12,534 nt of DNA from a virus (lineage: Duplodnaviria > Heunggongvirae > Uroviricota > Caudoviricetes). The DNA is taken from the IMG/VR virus record IMGVR_UViG_2600254997_000018; one strand, 5' to 3'. A program made the position numbers and the translations under genes. Of the stretch, positions 873 through 12,534 are shown in pieces; positions within the stretch are counted from its first letter, which is position 1, and every line of letters begins with the position of its first letter. A model generated the notes under the pieces. The model ran no database searches and was not told the DNA's origin. It saw nothing but the letters and a program-made list of their open reading frames with translations.

Positions 873-1355
873 GCCACGTCACCCCCTGAATCCAGGCGGT
901 ATTTCAGTGTCCGGTTCAGAAATGTGATTTACGCAACGCTGCGCGGGCGAACGCCCCAGGCGGATAACCAGTTCATCCCATTTTTCCCGGAGTTTTGCCG
1001 GACTCATGATGTGTTTTTACCCAGAACGAATCCCGCTGGACACGCCCAAACATTTCACAAATCTGCCGGTGACTACGTCCATCCAGCATACGCATCATGC
1101 GCACATCATTCGCCCAGGTCGTCCAGTTAGGTTCTCTGGGGCGTGACACCTCACCATCATCACTGGCGGCCTGTTCATACAACGCCACAACCCGTCCCCA
1201 AATCCACTGCGCACAGGTTCGACATCCTCACGGGTACCCCACTGTCGCTTCGGTACATTCCAGGTATGCGCATCCGGGTGTTTCTCCAGAAATCGCTCAA
1301 CTGGTGATGATTGTTTTTCGTCCGGCAGTGAAACGTCCGGACAAGAAGATCTTTT

Positions 1356-1507
1356 ATCTTGACGGATCAGGTTTTGATACTGACGGATCGGGGTCAATCA
1401 TCGCCCCCCTAATCGGCAGTTTTTTATCAACCGTTGATCCATCAAAATTTGACGGGTCAACCGTTGAGGGGTCAATATTTGACGGGTCAACTGTTAACGG
1501 GTCATTT
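1356..1507. repeat. Iteron-like direct and inverted repeats; putative prophage replication origin inside the initiator gene
   Basis: Core GACGG(G/A)TCA recurs at least 6 times. Two near-identical 30-bp tandem units at 1448-1477 and 1478-1507, two ~21-bp units at 1359-1400, and an AT-rich stretch follows at 1505-1545. Layout resembles lambda ori within gene O. Confidence 0.6.
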
Positions 1508-1768
1508 TTTGTCCGGGCTAATTTTTCTTTTCGGTTTATATGCCTCACGCGCCGCAGTTGCAGCTGCTTCGAGTTTTTCCACATTAAGCCGATAGATATT
1601 GCTTACGTTACGCCCACCGACCTTACGCTCTTCCTTCGTCAGCCAGCCCTCTTTCGCCAGTTCTGCAATAGCAGATTTAACGGTGGATTCACTTCTTGCA
1701 CCGATCTGACGCCGGATAGTTTCAATGGCAGGCCATGACACGCCCTCGTCATTGCTGTAGTCTAGCAA
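1502..1768 (-). CDS. Helix-turn-helix N-terminal segment of a phage replication initiator (O/YdaU-like), apparently truncated
   Basis: 88-aa ORF with HTH-like stretch AIETIRRQIGARSESTVKSAIAELAKEGWL. It starts on TTG with weak Shine-Dalgarno and contains no Met, and it ends at a stop just past a T6 run (1505-1510) inside the iteron array, so it looks like one piece of a longer broken gene. Confidence 0.5.
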   Translation of the reverse strand: MLDYSNDEGVSWPAIETIRRQIGARSESTVKSAIAELAKEGWLTKEERKVGGRNVSNIYRLNVEKLEAAATAAREAYKPKRKISPDKK

Positions 1769-1875: not shown

Positions 1876-2301
1876 TTAGTGCATCACCACAGCATTCCCT
1901 GCCGGGCCGCCGCGATTCATCTGGTCATACAAAACAACCGCTGACGCAACAAAATCATCGACATCCTTCACCAGCCGATCCCTCCGTTCGACAATCTCAC
2001 GGTAATATTCAGAACTGTGGCTGCGCATACGGGCCACCAGCAGAGGCGGCATTGCCTTTTCGATCGCCGGTAACAGAGCCTGCATTTTTTCAACAGCATC
2101 AGGGGTGTCTTTATCCAGCCAACGGAAAATTTTCTGGGTATTACGAGCCAGGGCTTCCGGATGGCTGTCGTCGTACAGTTCCGGGAACGTCATCCCCAGT
2201 TCGAAATAAGTCCGGGCTATTTCAGCTGCAGGAACTTTCTCACCATCAGGATATGCCCAGGCATTCATCGCCATGCGGATGTGCTCATGTTTGATTTTCA
2301 T
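1876..2301 (-). CDS. ydaT: YdaT-like prophage protein (occupies the CII-like position)
   Basis: 141-aa ORF starting MKIKHEHI, immediately downstream of and overlapping the ydaS-like gene by 17 nt, as in Rac ydaS-ydaT. Assignment is from recalled similarity and synteny. Confidence 0.75.
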   Translation of the reverse strand: MKIKHEHIRMAMNAWAYPDGEKVPAAEIARTYFELGMTFPELYDDSHPEALARNTQKIFRWLDKDTPDAVEKMQALLPAIEKAMPPLLVARMRSHSSEYYREIVERRDRLVKDVDDFVASAVVLYDQMNRGGPAGNAVVMH

Positions 2302-2608
2302 GAATCATTTGCCTCTTGATGCTTCGGGTATGATCGTTTTCGTCATTTGGTTGCTTCATCGACATATTCTGCGAATAACATGACGAGCGTCGTAAGTATG
2401 TCCAATCAACATCAGGACGAAGTTCTTCACACAGGACACCACCTTTTGTTGCTCGTTCAATCGCAGGACATCTCTCAGCAGGCAACTGACGTACACCTTT
2501 GATCCATTGATTTACGCTTGGAGGAGATACACCTAAAAGCCTAGCCATTGCTGATTGCCCACCGACAACAGCACAAGCTCGTTTGAATGAATAGTTATCT
2601 TTTTTCAT
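2285..2608 (-). CDS. ydaS: YdaS-like Cro-type HTH DNA-binding protein
   Basis: Sequence MKKDNYSFKRACAVVGGQSAMARLLGVSPPSVNQWIKGVRQLPAERCPAIERA closely matches recalled Rac YdaS. Start placed at ATG 2608 (GGAG Shine-Dalgarno 8 nt upstream) rather than the track's GTG at 2629. Divergent from the repressor gene. Confidence 0.8.
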   Translation of the reverse strand: MKKDNYSFKRACAVVGGQSAMARLLGVSPPSVNQWIKGVRQLPAERCPAIERATKGGVLCEELRPDVDWTYLRRSSCYSQNMSMKQPNDENDHTRSIKRQMIHENQT

Positions 2609-2629
2609 CGAATGAACTCCAAAAAACAC

Positions 2630-2732
2630 ACAATAATATTAGGCTTAGCCTAATGTGATTGTCAATAGGCTATGCCTAACGATTCGAGAGTAGGGATTGC
2701 CTAACGCGATGCGCATAGGAGACTATTAAGCA
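2630..2732. promoter_or_regulatory. Divergent promoter/operator region between the ydaS-like and repressor genes
   Basis: Three operator-like sites about 26 bp apart: perfect 17-bp palindrome ATTAGGCTTAGCCTAAT (2638-2654), TAGGC-TAT-GCCTA (2666-2678), TAGGG-ATT-GCCTA (2691-2703). AGGAG Shine-Dalgarno at 2716-2720 before the repressor ATG at 2733. Confidence 0.5.
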
Positions 2733-3209
2733 ATGCTTAGTGGTAAAGACTTAGGCCGAGCGATAGAGCAGGCCATTAACAAAAAAATTGCATCAGGAGC
2801 CGTCAAATCAAAGGCGGAAATCGCACGTCATTTCAAAGTCCAACCACCATCAATCCATGACTGGATTAAGAAAGGTTCGATAAGTAAAGACAAACTTCCA
2901 GAACTATGGCGTTTCTTTTCTGATGTGGTTGGTCCAGAGCATTGGGGGCTTAACGAATACCCCATACCAACCCCATCCACTTCAGATACAAAAAGTGAAC
3001 TTTTAGACATAAACAGCCTTTATCAAGCCGCCTCTGATGAAAAAAGAGCAATTGTGGCTTTCCTCTTATCTGGAAATGCTACGGAGCCTAGTTGGGTTGA
3101 TCATGACGTTCGCGCCTACATTGCCGCAATGGAAATGAAGGTAGCTAACTATCTGAAAAATCAAGAATCAAAACGGAAAAGCCAGAACATCACCAAGACA
3201 GGAACTTAA
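2733..3209 (+). CDS. racR: RacR-like prophage repressor (HTH, no recognisable S24 peptidase/LexA-type domain)
   Basis: 158-aa ORF (same length as Rac RacR) with HTH-like stretch SKAEIARHFKVQPPSIHDWIKKGSIS. Divergent from ydaS/ydaT-like genes as in Rac. Identity from synteny, length and recalled similarity, not a search. Confidence 0.65.
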   Translation: MLSGKDLGRAIEQAINKKIASGAVKSKAEIARHFKVQPPSIHDWIKKGSISKDKLPELWRFFSDVVGPEHWGLNEYPIPTPSTSDTKSELLDINSLYQAASDEKRAIVAFLLSGNATEPSWVDHDVRAYIAAMEMKVANYLKNQESKRKSQNITKTGT

Positions 3210-3283
3210 ACTTATATGGTACGACGGGAAATTCCTAGTTCCCGTTAGTTAACTCCTACTACCTCTCCCACAAACCATCACCT

Positions 3284-3346
3284 ATTAGGTCGCACCCAAA
3301 TCATTAGGCGCAGCCTATTGACAGGCAATTAGGCATTTCCTATAGT
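3284..3346 (+). promoter_or_regulatory. Sigma70-like promoter (TTGACA-17-TATAGT) with flanking and embedded TTAGGC operator-like sites; putative promoter of the DUF1391-dicF-dicB operon
   Basis: -35 TTGACA 3318-3323, 17-bp spacer, -10 TATAGT 3341-3346. Palindrome TAGGC-GCA-GCCTA at 3305-3317 abuts the -35, ATTAGGC at 3328-3334 sits in the spacer, and ATTAGG also occurs at 3284-3289. Confidence 0.5.
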
Positions 3347-3527
3347 TTTCCCATACCAACCCATCCCGTCCCACACAATACAGGGCAATACCTAGAGTTA
3401 CCCGGCAGTGGTCAGGGATTAAGTAGCCAGCCCGAGGCGTATGAACATGACGGCGGGAACACTTTGTATAACAGCGCAGCAGGTTTTTAGTTCCGCTACC
3501 CCAGCGTTAAGGGGAAATGAGGTCAGC

Positions 3528-3680
3528 ATGGATACTATCGAGCTTGGCAACAACGAATCTCTGGTATGTGGCGTGTTTCCCAATCAGGACGGCACGTTTA
3601 CCGCGATGACGTATACCAAAAGTAAAACGTTTAAAACCGAAGCTGCCGCGCATCGCTGGTTAGCCAGAAACGCTAACTGA
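3528..3680 (+). CDS. ydfA: DUF1391 small protein (YdfA/YdaF-like)
   Basis: 50-aa product MDTIELGNNESLVCGVFPNQDGTFTAMTYTKSKTFKTE closely matches recalled Qin YdfA. GAGG Shine-Dalgarno 7-8 nt upstream of ATG 3528. The track's 79-aa ORF from 3441 is an in-frame upstream extension. Confidence 0.7.
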   Translation: MDTIELGNNESLVCGVFPNQDGTFTAMTYTKSKTFKTEAAAHRWLARNAN

Positions 3681-3942
3681 TTAGCGCCAGTAAAAACAGG
3701 TTTCCACAGGTTAATTTACCCTGAAAAGTCAGGGCATAACACGAAAGCGCACGGCGAGATCCCTTTGCATATAAGTCTTGTCGTTAAATTTCTTCGACCG
3801 TGCGCTTCTGGTTGTGGCAATCCGCGAAATGGCGCGGCGGTAAGTATGGCGGGGTTATTCCTTCCCCCATTGAGGACACCGGGTTGTCAGGTTGACCATA
3901 CGCTTAAGTGACAACTTCGCTACAACGCCCTCTGCTATCAAT

Positions 3943-3995
3943 TTTCTGGTGACGTTTGGCGGTATCAGTTTTACTCCGTGGCTGCTCTGCCGCCC
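3943..3995 (+). ncRNA. dicF: DicF small RNA homolog (Hfq-dependent ftsZ-targeting sRNA of Qin-type prophages)
   Basis: TTTCTGGTGACGTTTGGCGGTATCAGTTTTACTCCGTGGCTGCTCTGCCGCCC differs at one position (A to G) from the 53-nt K-12 DicF as I recall it. A T5 run follows at 3996-4000. It lies upstream of the dicB-like gene, as in Qin. Confidence 0.85.
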
Positions 3996-4169
3996 TTTTT
4001 AAAGTGAATTTTGTGATGCGGTGAATGCGGCTATGCGCACGCGGAACAGTTAAAACCAAAAACAGTGTTATGGGTGGATTCTCTGTATCCGGCGTTAATT
4101 GTTAACTGGTTAACGTCACCTGGAGGCACCAGGCACTGCATCACAAAATTCATTGTTGAGGACGCGATA

Positions 4170-4358
4170 ATGGAAACGTTATTACCAAACGTTAATACGT
4201 CTGAAGGTTGTTTTGATATTGGTGTTCTGCTCAGTAACCGGGAGTTTACTGAAGATGCCATTAAGATGAGAAAATATGAACCTTATCTTCTCAATGATAA
4301 TTCCATACTTTCCAGAATTGCCCTTCTTGAACTTGGTATTATCGGAGAACAGCAGTGA
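4170..4358 (+). CDS. dicB: DicB-like cell-division inhibitor (MinC-activating small protein)
   Basis: 62-aa product METLLPNVNTSEGCFDIGV... matches K-12 DicB in length and N-terminus as recalled. GAGGA Shine-Dalgarno upstream of ATG 4170. The track ORF 4065-4358 is an upstream in-frame extension. Confidence 0.8.
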   Translation: METLLPNVNTSEGCFDIGVLLSNREFTEDAIKMRKYEPYLLNDNSILSRIALLELGIIGEQQ

Positions 4359-4543
4359 CTTCAGCGTTTGCACTGGTGATGACCGTTTTTCTTATAACGG
4401 GTGAGCCACAAAATGTGATTACCGGAATTTATGCCAGTAAAGAATCCAGCCTCCAGGCAAGAGACGAGCAAAAAATTTCTGGTGAATGCCTACCGGTAAA
4501 AAAAGTATCGCTGTACCTGAATAACGAAACACCGGCTGGATAA
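4355..4543 (+). CDS. Small membrane protein, YdfD-like (Qin lysis-protein position)
   Basis: 62-aa ORF with an N-terminal hydrophobic helix (SAFALVMTVFLITG). GTG start overlaps the dicB-like stop (GTGA) with GGAG Shine-Dalgarno 7 nt upstream; alternative ATG at 4379. Assignment by synteny (gene after dicB in Qin is ydfD). Confidence 0.55.
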   Translation: MTSAFALVMTVFLITGEPQNVITGIYASKESSLQARDEQKISGECLPVKKVSLYLNNETPAG

Positions 4544-4638
4544 CCCGCCAGCTATATTAACGCCATACCAACGGATTAAAAATGCCAGCAATGGCAGGGA
4601 TTCGTTCACCCTGAAATCTGTAATGAGGTTAAAACACA

Positions 4639-7110
4639 ATGAGTAAAATCTTTATTTGCGCTGCTATTCCTGACGAACAGGCCATAAAAGAAGATAGCGC
4701 TGTTGCGGTGGCCACTGCCATTGAAGCCGGTGATGAGCGTCGCGCACGCGCAAAATTTCACTGGCAATTTCTGGAGCAATTCCCGGCAGCTCAGGACTGC
4801 GCTTATAAATTTATTGTCTGCGAGGATAAACCCGGCATACCCCGCCCTGCCCTCGATTCCTGGGATACCGAATATATGCAGGAAAACCGCTGGGATGAGG
4901 AGTCAGCTTCCTTTGTACCGGTCGAACCAGAATCCGATCCGATGAACGTCAATTTTGACAAGCTGTCCCCTGAAGTACAGAACGCAGTCCTAGTTAAATT
5001 CGACACATGCGAAAACATCACCGTTGATATGGTGATTAGCGCACAGGAATTACTACAGGAAGACATGGCAACATTCGGCGGACATATCGTTGAAGCGTTG
5101 ATGAAAATGCCAGAAGTTAACGCCATGTATCCTGAACTTAAACTGCATGCCATCGGGTGGGTTAAGCATAAATGTGAGCCTGGCGCTAAATGGCCTGAAA
5201 TTCAGGCAGAGATGCGCATCTGGAAAAAACGTCGCGAAGGTGAACGCAAGGAAACCGGAAAATACACGTCTGTTGTTGATCTCACCCGCGCCAGAGTCAA
5301 CCAACAGAACACTGAAAACGCTGCTGAAAAAACCGGGGCTGTCACTGTTGCCATTCGCCGCGAATACAAACAGACATGGAAAACACTCGACAATGAACTG
5401 GCCTGCGCCCTCTGGCCCGGTGATGTGGATGCAGGAAACATTGACGGTACCATCCATCGCTGGGCGACAAATGAGGTTATCGACAAGGATCGCGAAGACT
5501 GGAAGCGTATCTCAGCATCAATGCGCAAACAGCCCGAAGCACTTGGCTATGACCGTCAGACTATTTTTGGCCTTGTTCGCGAACGTCCGATCGATATTCA
5601 CAAAGATCCCGTTGCACTGAACAAATATATCAGTGAATACCTGACGACAAAGGGCGTGTTTGAACATGAAGAAACAGACCAGAGCTCTACTGATGCTCTC
5701 CAGCCGTCAGCAGCACAAACTGCTCCAGTGGAGACGGCAGAATCCGATACTCAAAAAAATGAAATCCTGGTGGAAGCTGAACCATCTGTAGAGCGTGAAG
5801 GACCATTTTATTTCGTCTTTACCGATAAGGGCGGGGAAAAATACGGCAGGGCAAACAAACTTTCTGGTCTGGACAAGGCGCTGGCTGCCGGCGGTACCGA
5901 AATCTCAAAAGAAGAATATTTTGCCCGAAAAAATGGCACATACACGGGCTTACCGCAAAATGTGGATACCGCTGAAGATTCCGAACAATCAGAGCCGGTA
6001 AAAGTTACCGCTGACGAAGTAAACAAAATTATGCAGGCAGCCAATATCAGCCAGCCTGACGCCGATAAATTGCTTGCTGCATCACGTGGTGAATTTGTTG
6101 AAGGGATTAGCGACCCGAATGATCCGAAATGGGTGAAAGGGATCCAGAGTCGCGACGCTGAGGACCAGAATCAGCCCAACGTGAAACAAAATGAGCCAGA
6201 AGCGGAACAAAACAGCCCGGATACGCAACAAAACGGGCCAGAAGAACAACAACCAGAACCAGCAGTGCAACAGGAACTGGAAAAAGTTTGCACCGCATGC
6301 GGTCAGACCGGTGGCGGCAACTGTCCTGACTGTGGTGCGGTGATGGGGAACGCAACCTACCTGGAAACATTCGATGAAGAGAATCAGGCTGAAGCTCAGA
6401 AAAATGATCCGGAGGAAATGGAAGGCACTGAACATCTGCACAAGGAGAACACTGGCAGCGATCAGTATCACGCCAGCGATAATAAAACTGGCGAAACAGC
6501 AAATCCCTTAATTAAAGTGAACGGTCATCATGAAATCTCATCCACCAGCAGGTTGTGGCACCATCTGATGATTGACCTTGAAACAATGGGAAAAAATCCT
6601 GATGCGCCAATAAACGCTATAGCCGGTAAGTTTTTTGATCCGGCAACCGGAGAGATGGGGCCAGAATTCAGCAAAACTATCGATCTGGAAACCGCAGGTG
6701 GGGTCATCGATCGGGACACCATTAAGTGGTGGCTGAAACAGTCACGCGAAGCACAATCCTCCATTCTGACCGATGAAATCACGTTGGATGATGCACTGCT
6801 GCAATTCCGGGAATTTATCGACGAAAACTCCGGTGAATTTTTTGTTCAGGTCTGGGGTAACGGTGCAACTTTCGACAACGTGATTTTACGCCGTTCATAT
6901 GAACGGCAGGGGATCCCCTGCCCGTGGCGTTACACCAATGATCGCGATGTAAGAACGATGGTTGCTCTGGGACTGGTGATGGATTTCGACGCAAGAACGA
7001 CTATTCCATTCGAAGGTGAACGCCATAACGCCCTGCACGATGCGCGTTACCAGGCAAAATACGTTTCAGCCATCTGGCAAAAACTGCTCCCGAGTCAGGC
7101 TGATTTTTAA
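4639..7110 (+). CDS. Prophage exonuclease, 823 aa: RecE/exodeoxyribonuclease-VIII-like N-terminal region, CxxC-x7-CxxC zinc ribbon, C-terminal DnaQ-like (DEDDh) 3'-5' exonuclease domain
   Basis: Intact 2.47-kb ORF with GAGG Shine-Dalgarno. Motif DKLLAASRGEFVEGISDPNDPKWVKGIQ recalls RecE. C-terminal ~190 aa carry DEDDh motifs (MIDLETMG, WGNGATFDNVIL, HNALHDARYQ). Zinc ribbon encoded at 6289-6333, acidic/Gln-rich linker at ~6160-6280. Confidence 0.85.
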   Translation: MSKIFICAAIPDEQAIKEDSAVAVATAIEAGDERRARAKFHWQFLEQFPAAQDCAYKFIVCEDKPGIPRPALDSWDTEYMQENRWDEESASFVPVEPESDPMNVNFDKLSPEVQNAVLVKFDTCENITVDMVISAQELLQEDMATFGGHIVEALMKMPEVNAMYPELKLHAIGWVKHKCEPGAKWPEIQAEMRIWKKRREGERKETGKYTSVVDLTRARVNQQNTENAAEKTGAVTVAIRREYKQTWKTLDNELACALWPGDVDAGNIDGTIHRWATNEVIDKDREDWKRISASMRKQPEALGYDRQTIFGLVRERPIDIHKDPVALNKYISEYLTTKGVFEHEETDQSSTDALQPSAAQTAPVETAESDTQKNEILVEAEPSVEREGPFYFVFTDKGGEKYGRANKLSGLDKALAAGGTEISKEEYFARKNGTYTGLPQNVDTAEDSEQSEPVKVTADEVNKIMQAANISQPDADKLLAASRGEFVEGISDPNDPKWVKGIQSRDAEDQNQPNVKQNEPEAEQNSPDTQQNGPEEQQPEPAVQQELEKVCTACGQTGGGNCPDCGAVMGNATYLETFDEENQAEAQKNDPEEMEGTEHLHKENTGSDQYHASDNKTGETANPLIKVNGHHEISSTSRLWHHLMIDLETMGKNPDAPINAIAGKFFDPATGEMGPEFSKTIDLETAGGVIDRDTIKWWLKQSREAQSSILTDEITLDDALLQFREFIDENSGEFFVQVWGNGATFDNVILRRSYERQGIPCPWRYTNDRDVRTMVALGLVMDFDARTTIPFEGERHNALHDARYQAKYVSAIWQKLLPSQADF

Positions 7111-7168
7111 TGTTCAACCCGGATCGCCGCTAACGGCATATAGTTAGCGGCGGTTGTGAGATATAGCT

Positions 7169-7372
7169 ATGAGCAGCATATTTTTAACCGAAAATGAATT
7201 GCAAACGTTAACGGGCTGCAAATATGCAAGCCACCAGCGCAACTGGTTAATAAAAAATGGGCTTCCGTTCTATACCAATCGTAGTGGAAAACCGATCGTC
7301 AGTCGGGAACTGTTTACCTGTATAAAAACTTTACCACCACGTGAGGCTGAACCTGATTTCGGTGCGATCTAA
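7169..7372 (+). CDS. Excisionase-like protein (Xis, DUF4224-type)
   Basis: 67-aa ORF directly upstream of the integrase. Its stop TAA overlaps the integrase ATG (TAATG at 7370-7374), the classic xis-int arrangement. Confidence 0.6.
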   Translation: MSSIFLTENELQTLTGCKYASHQRNWLIKNGLPFYTNRSGKPIVSRELFTCIKTLPPREAEPDFGAI

Positions 7373-8397
7373 TGGGAAGACGAAGGAAAAATCCCGAACA
7401 CGAAAAATTACCGCCAAAGGTATACCCCAATAAATATAGTTATGTATGGAAACCGACATCCAGAGAATCTGTAACCTTAACTGCAATCGAGGATGGTTTA
7501 GCCGCATTATGGAAAAAGTATGAAGAAACGGTTAACCATCGCGATCGCGCAATGACATTTGGGCGTTTGTGGGAAAAATTTCTCGCCAGCGCCTATTACA
7601 GCGAGCTTAGTCCTAGAACTCAAAAAGATTATCTGCAACATCAAAAAAAGCTGCTGGCCGTATTCGGTAAGGTGCTGGCCGATTCTGTAAAACCAGAGCA
7701 CATCAGACGATACATGGACAAAAGAGGCGAGCAGAGTAAAACGCAGGCAAACCATGAAAAAAGCAGTATGTCGCGCGTTTATAGTTGGGGGTATGAGCGA
7801 GGATACGTGAAGGCTAACCCATGTGCAGGTGTAAGTAAATTCAAGGCCAAAAACCGCGAACGATATGTAACCGACAAAGAATACCAGGCAGTATTAAGCG
7901 TTGCACCTCTTCCTGTTTTTATCGCAATGGAAATTGCCTATCTGTGTGCAGCGAGGGTTTCCGATGTGTTATCGCTGAAATGGGAGCAGATTGGAAACGA
8001 CGGGATCTTTATCCAGCAAGGGAAAACAGGGAAAAAACAGATAAAAGCATGGAGTCCACGATTACAGGCGGCGATCGAAAAAGCAAAACAGTTACCAACA
8101 TCCGCCTATGTAATCAGCAATCAATACGGCAACCGATATATGTACAAAGGCTTTAACGAAATGTGGGTAGAAGCAAGAAATCACGCAGGCAAAATTTCAG
8201 GTATTTTAACCGACTTCACCTTTCATGATCTGAAGGCGAAAGGAATTTCAGACTATGAAGGAAGCAGCCGGGATAAGCAACTTTTCTCTGGTCACAAAAC
8301 CGAAGGGCAAGTGCTAATCTATGACAGGAAGGTTAAAGTTTCACCAACACTTGATGTCCCGTTACCTGAAAATATTCCAAGAAAATATTCCAAGTAA
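7372..8397 (+). CDS. Phage integrase, tyrosine site-specific recombinase
   Basis: 341-aa ORF whose C-terminal region carries residues consistent with the tyrosine-recombinase catalytic set (R in ARVSD, H/K in HDLKAKG, Y in LIYDRK). It ends 52 bp from the 3' end of tRNA-Ser. Confidence 0.9.
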   Translation: MGRRRKNPEHEKLPPKVYPNKYSYVWKPTSRESVTLTAIEDGLAALWKKYEETVNHRDRAMTFGRLWEKFLASAYYSELSPRTQKDYLQHQKKLLAVFGKVLADSVKPEHIRRYMDKRGEQSKTQANHEKSSMSRVYSWGYERGYVKANPCAGVSKFKAKNRERYVTDKEYQAVLSVAPLPVFIAMEIAYLCAARVSDVLSLKWEQIGNDGIFIQQGKTGKKQIKAWSPRLQAAIEKAKQLPTSAYVISNQYGNRYMYKGFNEMWVEARNHAGKISGILTDFTFHDLKAKGISDYEGSSRDKQLFSGHKTEGQVLIYDRKVKVSPTLDVPLPENIPRKYSK

Positions 8398-8449: not shown

Positions 8450-8539
8450 TGGCGGAGAGAGGGGGATTTGAACCCCCGGTGGAGTTGCCCCCACTCCGGT
8501 TTTCGAGACCGGTCCGTTCAGCCGCTCCGGCATCTCTCC
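8450..8539 (-). tRNA. serU: tRNA-Ser (anticodon CGA)
   Basis: Reverse complement reads GGAGAGATGCCGGAGCGGCTGAACGGACCGGTCTCGAAAACCGGAG...TCTCTCCGCCA: 7-bp acceptor stem, anticodon loop CU-CGA-AA, long variable arm, encoded CCA. Matches E. coli serU as recalled. Confidence 0.9.
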
Positions 8540-9530: not shown

Positions 9531-9606
9531 TCCTCTGTAGTTCAGTCGGTAGAACGGCGGACTGTTAATCCGTATGTCACTGGTTCGAGTCCAGTCAGAG
9601 GAGCCA
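9531..9606 (+). tRNA. asnT: tRNA-Asn (anticodon GUU)
   Basis: TCCTCTGTAGTTCAGTCGGTAGAACGGCGGACTGTTAATCCGTATGTCACTGGTTCGAGTCCAGTCAGAGGAGCCA, 76 nt, matches E. coli tRNA-Asn as recalled. Copy assignment (asnT) is by position next to mtfA. Confidence 0.95.
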
Positions 9607-11209: not shown

Positions 11210-12419
11210 TCATAATTTCCCCAAAGCGTAACCATGTGTGAATAAATTTTGAGCTAGTAGGGTTGCAGCCACGAGTAAGTCTTCCCTTGTTATTGTGTAG
11301 CCAGAATGCCGCAAAACTTCCATGCCTAAGCGAACTGTTGAGAGTACGTTTCGATTTCTGACTGTGTTAGCCTGGAAGTGCTTAGTCCCAACCTTGTTTC
11401 TGAGCATGAACGCCCGCAAGCCAACATGTTAGTTGAAGCATCAGGGCGATTAGCAGCATGATATCAAAACGCTACTGAGCTGCCCGTTCGGCTATGGCGT
11501 AGGCCTAGCCCGTAGGCAGGACTTTTCAAGTCTCGGAAGGTTTCTTCAATCTGCATTCGCTTCGAATAGATATTAACAAGTTGTTTGGGTGTTCGAATTT
11601 CAACAGGTAAGTTAGTTGCTAGAACCATGGCTCCTTTGCCGACGCTGAGTAGATTTTAGGTGACGGGTGGTGACAATGAGTCCGTGTCGAGCGCTGATTT
11701 TTTCGGCCTTTAGAGCGAGATTTATACAATAGAATTTGGCATGAGATTGGATTGCTTTTAGTCAGCCTCTTATAGCCTAAAGTCTTTGAGTGACTAGATG
11801 ACATATCATGTAAGTTGCTGATAGGTTTCCAGTTTTCCGCTCCTAGGTCTGCATATTGTACTTTTCCTCTTACTCGACTTAACCAGTACCAACCCAGCTT
11901 CTCAACGGATTTATACCATGGCACTTTAAAGCCAGCATCACTGACAATGAGCGGTGTGGTGTTACTCGGTAGAATGCTCGCAAGGTCGGCTAGAAATTGG
12001 TCATGAGCTTTCTTTGAACATTGCTCTGAAAGCGGGAACGCTTTCTCATAAAGAGTAACAGAACGACCGTGTAGTGCGACTGAAGCTCGCAATACCATAA
12101 GTCGTTTTTGCTCACGAATATCAGACCAGTCAACAAGTACAATGGGCATCGTATTGCCCGAACAGATAAAGCTAGCATGCCAACGGTATACAGCGAGTCG
12201 CTCTTTGTGGAGGTGACGATTACCTAACAATCGGTCGATTCGTTTGATGTTATGTTTTGTTCTCGCTTTGGTTGGCAGGTTACGGCCAAGTTCGGTAAGA
12301 GTGAGAGTTTTACAGTCAAGTAATGCGTGGCAAGCCAACGTTAAGCTGTTGAGTCGTTTTAAGTGTAATTCGGGGCAGAATTGGTAAAGAGAGTCGTGTA
12401 AAATATCGAGTTCGCACAT
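11210..12419 (-). pseudogene. IS10 transposase, frame-disrupted (N-terminal 266 aa intact, middle and C-terminal parts in other frames)
   Basis: ORF 11619-12419 matches IS10 Tnp from MCELDILHDSLYQF... but stops at ...AKEPWF*. The expected continuation VLATNLPVEIRTPKQ... is in another frame, and the C-terminal ...HFQANTVRNRNVLSTV...GYALGKL is in ORF 11210-11419. At least three indels within ~200 bp. Confidence 0.8.
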
Positions 12420-12480
12420 CTTGTTGTCTGATTATTGATTTTTCGCGAAACCATTTGATCATATGACAAGATGTGTATCT
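12412..12480 (+). ncRNA. IS10 antisense RNA-OUT (predicted from position in IS10)
   Basis: Established IS10 layout puts pOUT about 115 bp from the outside end, transcribing outward. The window shows the expected stem: CGCACATCTTGTTGTC (12413-12428) pairs with GACAAGATGTG (12465-12475). GATC at 12467-12470. Confidence 0.5.
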
Positions 12481-12534
12481 ACCTTAACTTAATGATTTTT
12501 ATCAAAATCATTAGGGGATTCATCAGGCGTAGCG

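Follow-up and report, generated by a model that had tools for sequence, protein, structure and literature searches.

Which repressor governs the promoter that precedes the cell-division-inhibitor genes of a lambdoid prophage, and what is the long leader between this promoter and its first gene? We addressed these questions in a 12,534-nt stretch of viral DNA (IMG/VR record IMGVR_UViG_2600254997_000018, hereafter the window), in which positions 3284-3346 hold a promoter and operator-like repeats upstream of a DUF1391 gene, the small RNA gene dicF and dicB. Over positions 2600-3700, the window is 99.9% identical to E. coli strain 14EC047 and is, judged by its sequence, a segment of an E. coli prophage. 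The locus is very probably the early-left promoter/operator, equivalent to lambda PL/OL, of a Rac-like lambdoid prophage situated at tRNA-Ser beside mtfA. As such, it appears to be a canonical lambdoid control region of an ordinary, well-known kind, and this assignment is well supported; the RNA element specified by its leader is apparently undescribed.

Promoter and operators downstream of racR

The best promoter-like site in the window, TTGACA-17-TATAGT, is close to the sigma-70 consensus, as an earlier note on this locus had claimed. The two operator words named in that note are also in place: TAGGC-GCA-GCCTA at 3305-3317 adjoins the -35 and belongs to a full 15-mer (OL2; see Table 1), and ATTAGGC at 3328-3334, in the spacer, represents the left half of a second one (OL1). 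These copies had been described as bracketing the promoter; they are indeed present, but overlap the promoter rather than flank it. When up to two mismatches were allowed, the 15-bp palindrome TTAGGC-N3-GCCTAA was found five times in the window against 0.31 expected, a count that none of 200 shuffles reached, and all five copies are confined to two clusters (2639-2704 and 3304-3343). The view that a motif of the immunity region is used again at this promoter is thus borne out.

The sites of the first cluster, OR, have zero, one and two mismatches to TTAGGCNNNGCCTAA, and the PL/OL geometry is a near-copy of PR/OR, about 650 bp apart from it. At PR, whose hexamers lie on the minus strand (TTGACA 2665-2660, TAATAT 2641-2636), OR2 (2665-2679) shares one base with the -35 and OR1 (2639-2653) extends across the spacer into the -10, taking in its first three bases; OL2 and OL1 are placed in the same way at PL. 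Centre-to-centre spacing of the operators is 25 and 19 bp in OL, and 26 and 25 bp in OR. The PR and PL blocks of the window and of K-12 align to one design, ATTAGGC-N3-GCCTA-TTGACA-...-TTAGGC-N3-nCCTA. Two more RacR-like sites, weak ones with three mismatches each, were seen at 2726-2740, over the racR start codon, and at 2751-2765, just within the gene; the former corresponds to the K-12 'O3' (PMC9638921).

As for the repressor, the protein encoded upstream of the promoter scored 246.8 bits with the RacR equivalog of NCBIfam (NF049929; cut-off 200), shares 92% identity with K-12 RacR and gave no Pfam match. In K-12, DNase I footprints of RacR between racR and ydaS led to the consensus (T/A)TAGGC-n3-GCCTA(T/A) (PMC9638921). 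OL2 (TTAGGC-GCA-GCCTAT) is an exact fit to this consensus, OL1 (TTAGGC-ATT-TCCTAT) has one mismatch to it, and OL3 fits it in the left half only. In K-12, lowered racR expression raised ydaG, ydaF, kilR, ydaE, racC and other genes 40-70 fold (PMC6765115, PMC11014345), and the RacR regulon has been called 'not yet characterized in detail' (PMC11014345). In the K-12 Rac prophage, racR is likewise followed by this promoter, and all five operator sites recur at matching positions. The earlier proposal that a single repressor serves both the switch and the dicF-dicB operon fits the consensus match, the K-12 layout and the early-left derepression in K-12, and RacR probably binds at OL. The accompanying suggestion of a DicA-like repressor fails, the repressor being a RacR equivalog unrelated to DicA. 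Since the repressor is RacR and not a relative of DicA, the prophage is, by its sequence, a mosaic of Rac immunity and Qin cargo.

We compared 83 RacR-type loci, which comprise 25 distinct sequences; a search of viral contigs for wider RacR diversity returned only relatives of at least 92% identity. Throughout these loci the -10 is invariant, and the -35 is changed only at 3318, in one locus. The OL2 half-sites are constant save for this same single-locus change at 3318, a base common to the -35, and two of the three central bases vary. The half-sites of OL1 (TTAGGC/GCCTA type) are constant save for position 3338, and in OL3 the left half, TTAGGT, is constant and the right half variable. Positions that do carry substitutions lie in the operators' central triplets, in the spacer of the promoter, in the weak right half of OL3 and in the flanking DNA.

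The promoter lies downstream of racR, is co-oriented with it and is directed away from the immunity region toward the recombination, xis and int genes, with several operator copies of OR type overlapping its -35 and -10. This is also the arrangement of lambda PL/OL, where three graded operator copies echo OR and the promoter drives kil-type, recombination, xis and int genes. In contrast to lambda, the repressor and operator sequences are unrelated, the window leader has no N gene or boxA/boxB, OL and OR are 650 bp apart instead of 2.4 kb, and RacR has no LexA-like cleavage domain. Because there is no boxA in the leader and the first open reading frame is DUF1391, we place the region in the general lambdoid PL/OL kind, as its sequence features indicate, and not in the N-dependent subclass.

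Among systems closer to it, the racR-ydaG intergenic region of K-12 Rac is a direct orthologue (85.7% DNA identity), with the same promoter, five operators and leader element, but its operon goes on with ydaG, ydaF, kilR and recET, not with DUF1391, DicF and dicB. The DicA-controlled dicBp of Qin, for which an arrangement of PL/OL type has been described, shares the cargo (ydfA-type gene, DicF, dicB, ydfD-type gene) and is likewise a PL-like promoter with three operators, placed after the repressor gene (PMC10448788). It differs in repressor family and operators, and neither DicA nor DicA-type operators were found in the window. PL933P of CP-933P (PaaR2, YdaS) belongs to a Rac-like immunity region with ydaS/ydaT; its PL and OL1-3 were identified via similarity to PR/OR, and repression was demonstrated (PMC8630535). 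There, the operator consists of GTTTAGTAA repeats and a toxin-antitoxin pair is inserted between the repressor gene and PL.

In a lysogen, RacR dimers would occupy OL1 and OL2, probably cooperatively and with weak help from OL3, and would cover the -35 and -10 so that sigma-70 RNA polymerase is excluded. RacR would likewise hold the mirror-image PR 650 bp upstream. When RacR is lost, transcription would proceed rightward from about 3353, through DUF1391, DicF and dicB and then the exonuclease gene, xis and int.

Several observations speak against this reading of the locus. An 11/12 promoter taken alone lies within chance, being present in 16% of 2000 Markov-resampled windows; at three mismatches, the operator motif is hardly enriched (9 against 4.2 expected); OL3 is a poor match; the OL sites are not described in the RacR literature examined, where the published footprints found concern OR only; and the Cro-like YdaS may share the OL sites. 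The first two would suit promoter-like hexamers and operator-like words assembled by chance, without any regulatory role. Such a coincidence is nevertheless hardly credible in view of five sites at up to two mismatches, all within two clusters, the repeated PR geometry, the identical layout in K-12 Rac and the selective conservation. It is also improbable, though less extremely so, that OL serves mainly as a distal partner for looping with OR, tightening PR repression and racR autoregulation, and that the promoter is of minor importance in a decayed prophage. Lambda CI and PaaR2 do octamerise and loop OL-OR (PMC8630535), the OL-OR separation is only about 650 bp here, and the prophage is partly decayed, with a split O-like gene. 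Yet the -35 and -10 are near-consensus and conserved as described above, the downstream operon is intact, and early-left genes of K-12 rose 40-70 fold on racR silencing (PMC6765115); moreover, looping and repression of the promoter are not mutually exclusive. Control by a DicA-type repressor, as in Qin, would suit the Qin-like cargo (DUF1391, DicF, dicB, DUF1482), but no DicA homologue is encoded in the window and the promoter and operators of K-12 Qin are unrelated in sequence. We give it next to no weight and regard it as ruled out by the identity of the repressor as RacR.

Structure and distribution of the leader RNA

The leader had been put at about 180 nt and called unusually long in the earlier note. 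It measures 175 nt between the predicted start (about 3353) and the DUF1391 ATG (3528), and the remark was apt, as a conserved structured RNA lies within it. This element begins 4-5 nt past the predicted +1. Its pattern of substitutions indicates that 3357-3462 is a multi-helix folded RNA with strong compensatory covariation. A long hairpin is formed by 3363-3374 with 3408-3419 and by 3379-3385 with 3401-3407, and ends in a 15-nt apical loop, CAAUACCUAGAGUUA, at 3386-3400. The closing helix is located near 3360-3362/3455-3457, and two stretches are invariant, AAGUAGCCAGCCCGAGGC (3421-3438) and GAACAUGAC (3443-3451). The common leader opens with ATACCAACCC. Constrained folds of 52 distinct copies led to a single architecture, in which a closing helix is combined with a three-segment long hairpin, a short invariant hairpin and an invariant single strand. 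In the family consensus, the loop reads CAAKACnnCGAGUUA, the short hairpin lies within AAGUAGCCAGCCYGAGGC and the unpaired strand is GAACAUGAM.

Covariation was evaluated in a gapless alignment of 25 copies of equal geometry, from which the covariance model was also built. In this alignment, the proposed pairs were paired in 72.3% of cases, compared with 24-43% when the partner was slid by 1-3 columns, and both sides were changed in 110 cells, compared with 7-35 in the slid registers. The covariation score was 0.449 against at most 0.127 after sliding, and none of 500 shuffles reached the observed values. A 44-sequence alignment fitted to the model and including Arsenophonus gave 84.1% paired against at most 39.4% slid, figures that lean toward the model by construction. 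Compensatory changes were spread over at least seven genera. Plain MAFFT with RNAalifold on the mixed lineages found only the invariant 3-bp hairpin; the gapless alignment of equal geometry was needed.

A few results detract from this picture. Folded as a single sequence, the whole 179-nt leader is no stabler than its shuffles (z = +1.65), the register of the closing helix differs among lineages, and the wobble-pair strand test, with 8 G.U against 4 A.C, lends weak support to the plus strand. That the leader is transcribed on the plus strand is inferred mainly from the promoter and gene context.

A cmscan of 3200-4200 against Rfam 15 at E<=10 yielded nothing on the plus strand of 3353-3527, and at gathering thresholds only DicF, RNA-OUT and two tRNAs were found in the window. 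Neither 12-mer of the invariant core was found in the literature text searched, and none of the 12 E. coli records listed had an annotated feature under the element match. A coding role was rejected: two of the plus-strand frames are interrupted by stops in 24 or 25 of the 25 sequences and the third, open in 15, is almost devoid of start codons; on the reverse strand, one frame is mostly open, without a start, and its conservation mirrors the invariant nucleotides.

Megablast matches from many E. coli genomes and phages start abruptly at 3352-3370, where transcription is predicted to begin, and lie downstream of unrelated repressor genes, and the intergenic regions consist of immunity-specific promoters and operators fused to the common leader. 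Clustering of the 76 nt that precede the element in 250 copies gave about 59 sequence groups, nearly all with a -35 of TTGAC type and palindromes of their own, lambda-like and HK022-like operators included. Of 5426 complete E. coli genomes, 1816 carry the element, and a single genome may hold as many as six copies. Its core pattern was found in 46 loci of species-representative genomes, which belong to Escherichia, Shigella, E. ruysiae, Serratia, Pectobacterium, Symbiopectobacterium, Superficieibacter and Winslowiella, and to Arsenophonus and Phlomobacter, both with many copies; at least 120 viral contigs contain it too. The covariance model detected a single copy in the window, with none near PR, and none in HK022 or K-12 Qin. 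In the K-12 dicBp leader (Qin), the common leader is reduced to its final ~45 nt and the structured 5' module is gone; the published K-12 dicBF work was therefore done without the element.

The gene that follows the element differs between lineages, and in Arsenophonus a nut site, not a gene, takes this place. Copies from Arsenophonus and Phlomobacter, and some from Symbiopectobacterium, have a canonical boxA, CGCTCTTTAACA, at a constant spacing after the element, and in Arsenophonus it is followed by a boxB-type hairpin and an arginine-rich N-like gene. The A. nilaparvatae locus contains, at 4700-7800, two tandem immunity modules on one strand, each with a repressor gene (DicA-like or LexA-like), the leader element, boxA with a boxB-type hairpin, and an arginine-rich N-like protein; the two N-like proteins have a C-terminal FDNCCLP motif in common.

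K-12 Rac, K-12 Qin and further prophages have kept the 3' part of the leader. Its hairpin in the window, CCCC-AGCGUUAA-GGGG, has the loop motif AGCGUUA in common with the boxB-like hairpin GCUCU-GAAUAAGCGUU-AGAGC of Arsenophonus, which comes after boxA in one class of copies. In E. coli, this hairpin may be what is left of a nut site.

What the leader RNA may do

With about even chances, 3357-3462 represents an undescribed, widespread family of structured phage RNAs that is fused at +1 to PL promoters and acts via a conserved host partner. The most appealing partner would be RNA polymerase or the termination machinery, which would make the element a second put-like class, unrelated to the first; alternatively, it would be a sensor of a small molecule or host factor at the outset of the induction programme. 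A conserved host partner is suggested by the many invariant unpaired nucleotides and by independence from the neighbouring genes; RNA polymerase, a termination factor, a nuclease or a small molecule could fill this role.

More specifically, we tentatively suggest that the element acts in cis on elongation or termination in a put-like manner, as a functional analogue of HK022 putL. All genes at 3528-8397 are on the plus strand, the promoter scan found no further promoter-like site of at least 10/12 on that strand besides the PL-type promoter, and the DicF hairpin with its T-run is the sole plus-strand terminator-like site between the promoter and int. As the DicF hairpin intervenes, expression of dicB, the exonuclease gene, xis and int from PL would need read-through of the DicF terminator, beyond which the operon presumably continues. 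No boxA was found within two mismatches in the window leader, and prophages of E. coli type with the element lack both boxA and an N gene. It is this absence, together with the need to read through the DicF terminator, that favours a role in elongation or termination.

HK022 put brings about factor-independent antitermination via the zinc-binding domain of the RNA polymerase beta' subunit, and a second copy follows PR. Like putL, the present element is a folded RNA made from the first nucleotides of the PL transcript, and Tritos, 666R9 and a Shigella prophage have an HK022-like PL and operators followed by the present element where HK022 has putL. However, put has about 70 nt and two stems, compared with about 106 nt, a three-segment long hairpin, a short hairpin and a closing helix here. 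The lack of detectable similarity to put and of a second copy near PR in the window count against the analogy, and so does the nut site and N-like gene with which the element co-occurs in other genera: where boxA follows the element, as in Arsenophonus and some Symbiopectobacterium, a self-sufficient antiterminator becomes less likely. Homology to HK022 putL was rejected, since the 19-nt stretch aligned by MAFFT (13 matches) was taken as chance and the covariance model was silent in HK022. Antitermination of the lambda N/nut type within the leader was discarded as well, there being no boxA and no N-like first open reading frame in related phages. Known prophage small RNAs are encoded elsewhere, AgvB and AsxR downstream of PR' (PMC4104026), and the Pas RNAs (PMC13192938) and lambda PreS (10.1101/2024.10.31.621285) at different loci.

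Other roles for the leader have to be weighed against a cis-acting one, with a smaller chance left for some further role or for no role at all. A riboswitch-like or protein-binding domain of the 5' untranslated region, tuning early-left translation or stability to a host signal, is possible but on the unlikely side. The multi-helix junction with many invariant unpaired nucleotides would suit it, as would the second conserved hairpin that E. coli-type copies have just 5' of the ribosome-binding site; but the following gene varies by lineage, being replaced by a nut site in Arsenophonus, and neither a terminator nor a partner sequestering the Shine-Dalgarno sequence is evident. We find it somewhat harder still to believe in a trans-acting role, in which processing would release the element from the start of the early-left transcript and the freed RNA, the first to be made on induction, would serve as a decoy or sponge for a conserved host factor or a defence system. 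The element is a self-contained domain with its own closing helix, it is independent of neighbouring genes, and action in trans has precedents among lambdoid early-left RNAs, such as PreS (bioRxiv 10.1101/2024.10.31.621285). Against this, there is no terminator, no obvious processing site and no single-stranded, seed-like variable region, and the conserved +1 position would not be needed for action in trans. Finally, it is improbable that the leader owes its length only to genes since lost, or to an unstructured C-rich region for Rho loading (rut), and has no folded RNA function. Its 5' end is C-rich and G-poor, the fold of the whole leader is not unusually stable, and Rho-dependent termination does act in the Rac immunity region (PMC4150792). 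But the C-rich strand pairs with a G-rich partner with compensatory changes in at least seven genera, on which ground Rho loading was dropped; long unpaired stretches are invariant; and the junction falls exactly at +1 behind about 59 promoter types.

Prophage context and implications

Table 1. Features of the prophage segment around the early-left promoter (positions in the window; mismatches are to the 15-bp operator)
Feature	Position	Strand	Remarks
DnaC-like gene		-	leftward of immunity region
O-like replication gene	879-1768	-	split over several frames
CII-like YdaT gene	1876-2301	-	
Cro-like YdaS gene	2285-2608	-	
PR-type promoter TTGACA-18-TAATAT	2636-2665	-	10/12; for ydaS(cro)-ydaT(cII)-replication genes
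OR-type cluster, three 15-bp sites	2639-2653, 2665-2679, 2690-2704		between divergent ydaS/cro-like gene and racR
racR, prophage repressor	2733-3209	+	158 aa; no S24 cleavage domain
OL3 TTAGGTCGCACCCAA	3285-3299		weak or half operator; 3 mismatches
OL2 TTAGGCGCAGCCTAT	3304-3318		shares one base with -35; 1 mismatch
PL-type sigma-70 promoter TTGACA-17-TATAGT	3318-3346	+	-35 3318-3323, -10 3341-3346; 11/12 consensus
OL1 TTAGGCATTTCCTAT	3329-3343		over spacer and first 3 bases of -10; 2 mismatches
Predicted transcription start	3353 (+/-1)	+	7 nt after -10; near onset (3352-3357) of leader homology shared behind unrelated promoters
Structured leader RNA element	3357-3462	+	covariance-model hit, 97.5 bits
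3' leader	3463-3527	+	hairpin CCCC-AGCGTTAA-GGGG 3499-3514; Shine-Dalgarno GAGG 3519-3522
DUF1391 (YdfA/YdaF-like), first operon gene	3528-3680	+	Pfam PF07151, 99.3 bits
DicF small RNA	3944-3995	+	Rfam RF00039, 75 bits; terminator-like hairpin 3978-3993, then T-run
dicB, cell-division inhibitor	4170-4358	+	Pfam PF05358, 129.5 bits
DUF1482, 823-aa exonuclease-domain protein, xis-like DUF4224, integrase	4355-8397	+	

The prophage of 14EC047 is located at tRNA-Ser, adjoining mtfA. In the window, tRNA genes at 8453-8539 (minus strand) and 9531-9603 (plus strand) flank mtfA and are tRNA-Ser and tRNA-Asn according to the 14EC047 annotation; about 55 nt separate the end of the integrase gene from the tRNA-Ser gene, the likely attachment site. 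The O-like gene of the near-identical 14EC047 is annotated as intact (969 nt), and five iteron-like repeats with a 15-bp period lie inside this gene in the window (1427-1516). An IS10-like element occupies 11464-12481, with a transposase frame broken into pieces of 266 and 54 aa and an RNA-OUT match at 12412-12481 (98.8 bits, Rfam). Directly 3' of the racR stop codon is a hairpin (3224-3245, ACGGGAA...TTCCCGT, then TAGTTAA), which K-12 Rac retains with one compensatory change of G-C to A-T and which may mark the end of the racR transcript; a Rho-dependent terminator, 'trac', has been located in or after racR (PMC4150792).

In Qin, phage Tritos and strain R13, the DUF1391 gene and DicF are separated by ydfB and ydfC. 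The window lacks both genes, and the 264-nt gap at this point of its operon (3681-3943) has no convincing open reading frame. A sub-threshold Rfam match to STnc100 was seen between DicF and dicB (4007-4147; 35.1 bits against a gathering score of 47, E = 9e-6). A 79-aa open reading frame at 3441-3680 was dismissed as an in-frame artefact, the same stretch being out of frame in K-12.

The regulatory assignment would bring a cell-division-inhibitor operon (DicF, DicB) into the RacR regulon in addition to the switch, and it shows Rac-type immunity and Qin-type cargo to recombine freely. The leader RNA is the more useful result, as a covarying domain with no Rfam match, unannotated in the 12 E. coli records listed. 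It would stand at the 5' end of the first transcript made upon awakening of a very common class of enterobacterial prophages. The element is present in K-12 Rac upstream of ydaG and has been lost from K-12 Qin, where the dicBF operon was studied. It may play a part in read-through of the DicF terminator, in expression of the kil/dicB toxicity genes and in excision.

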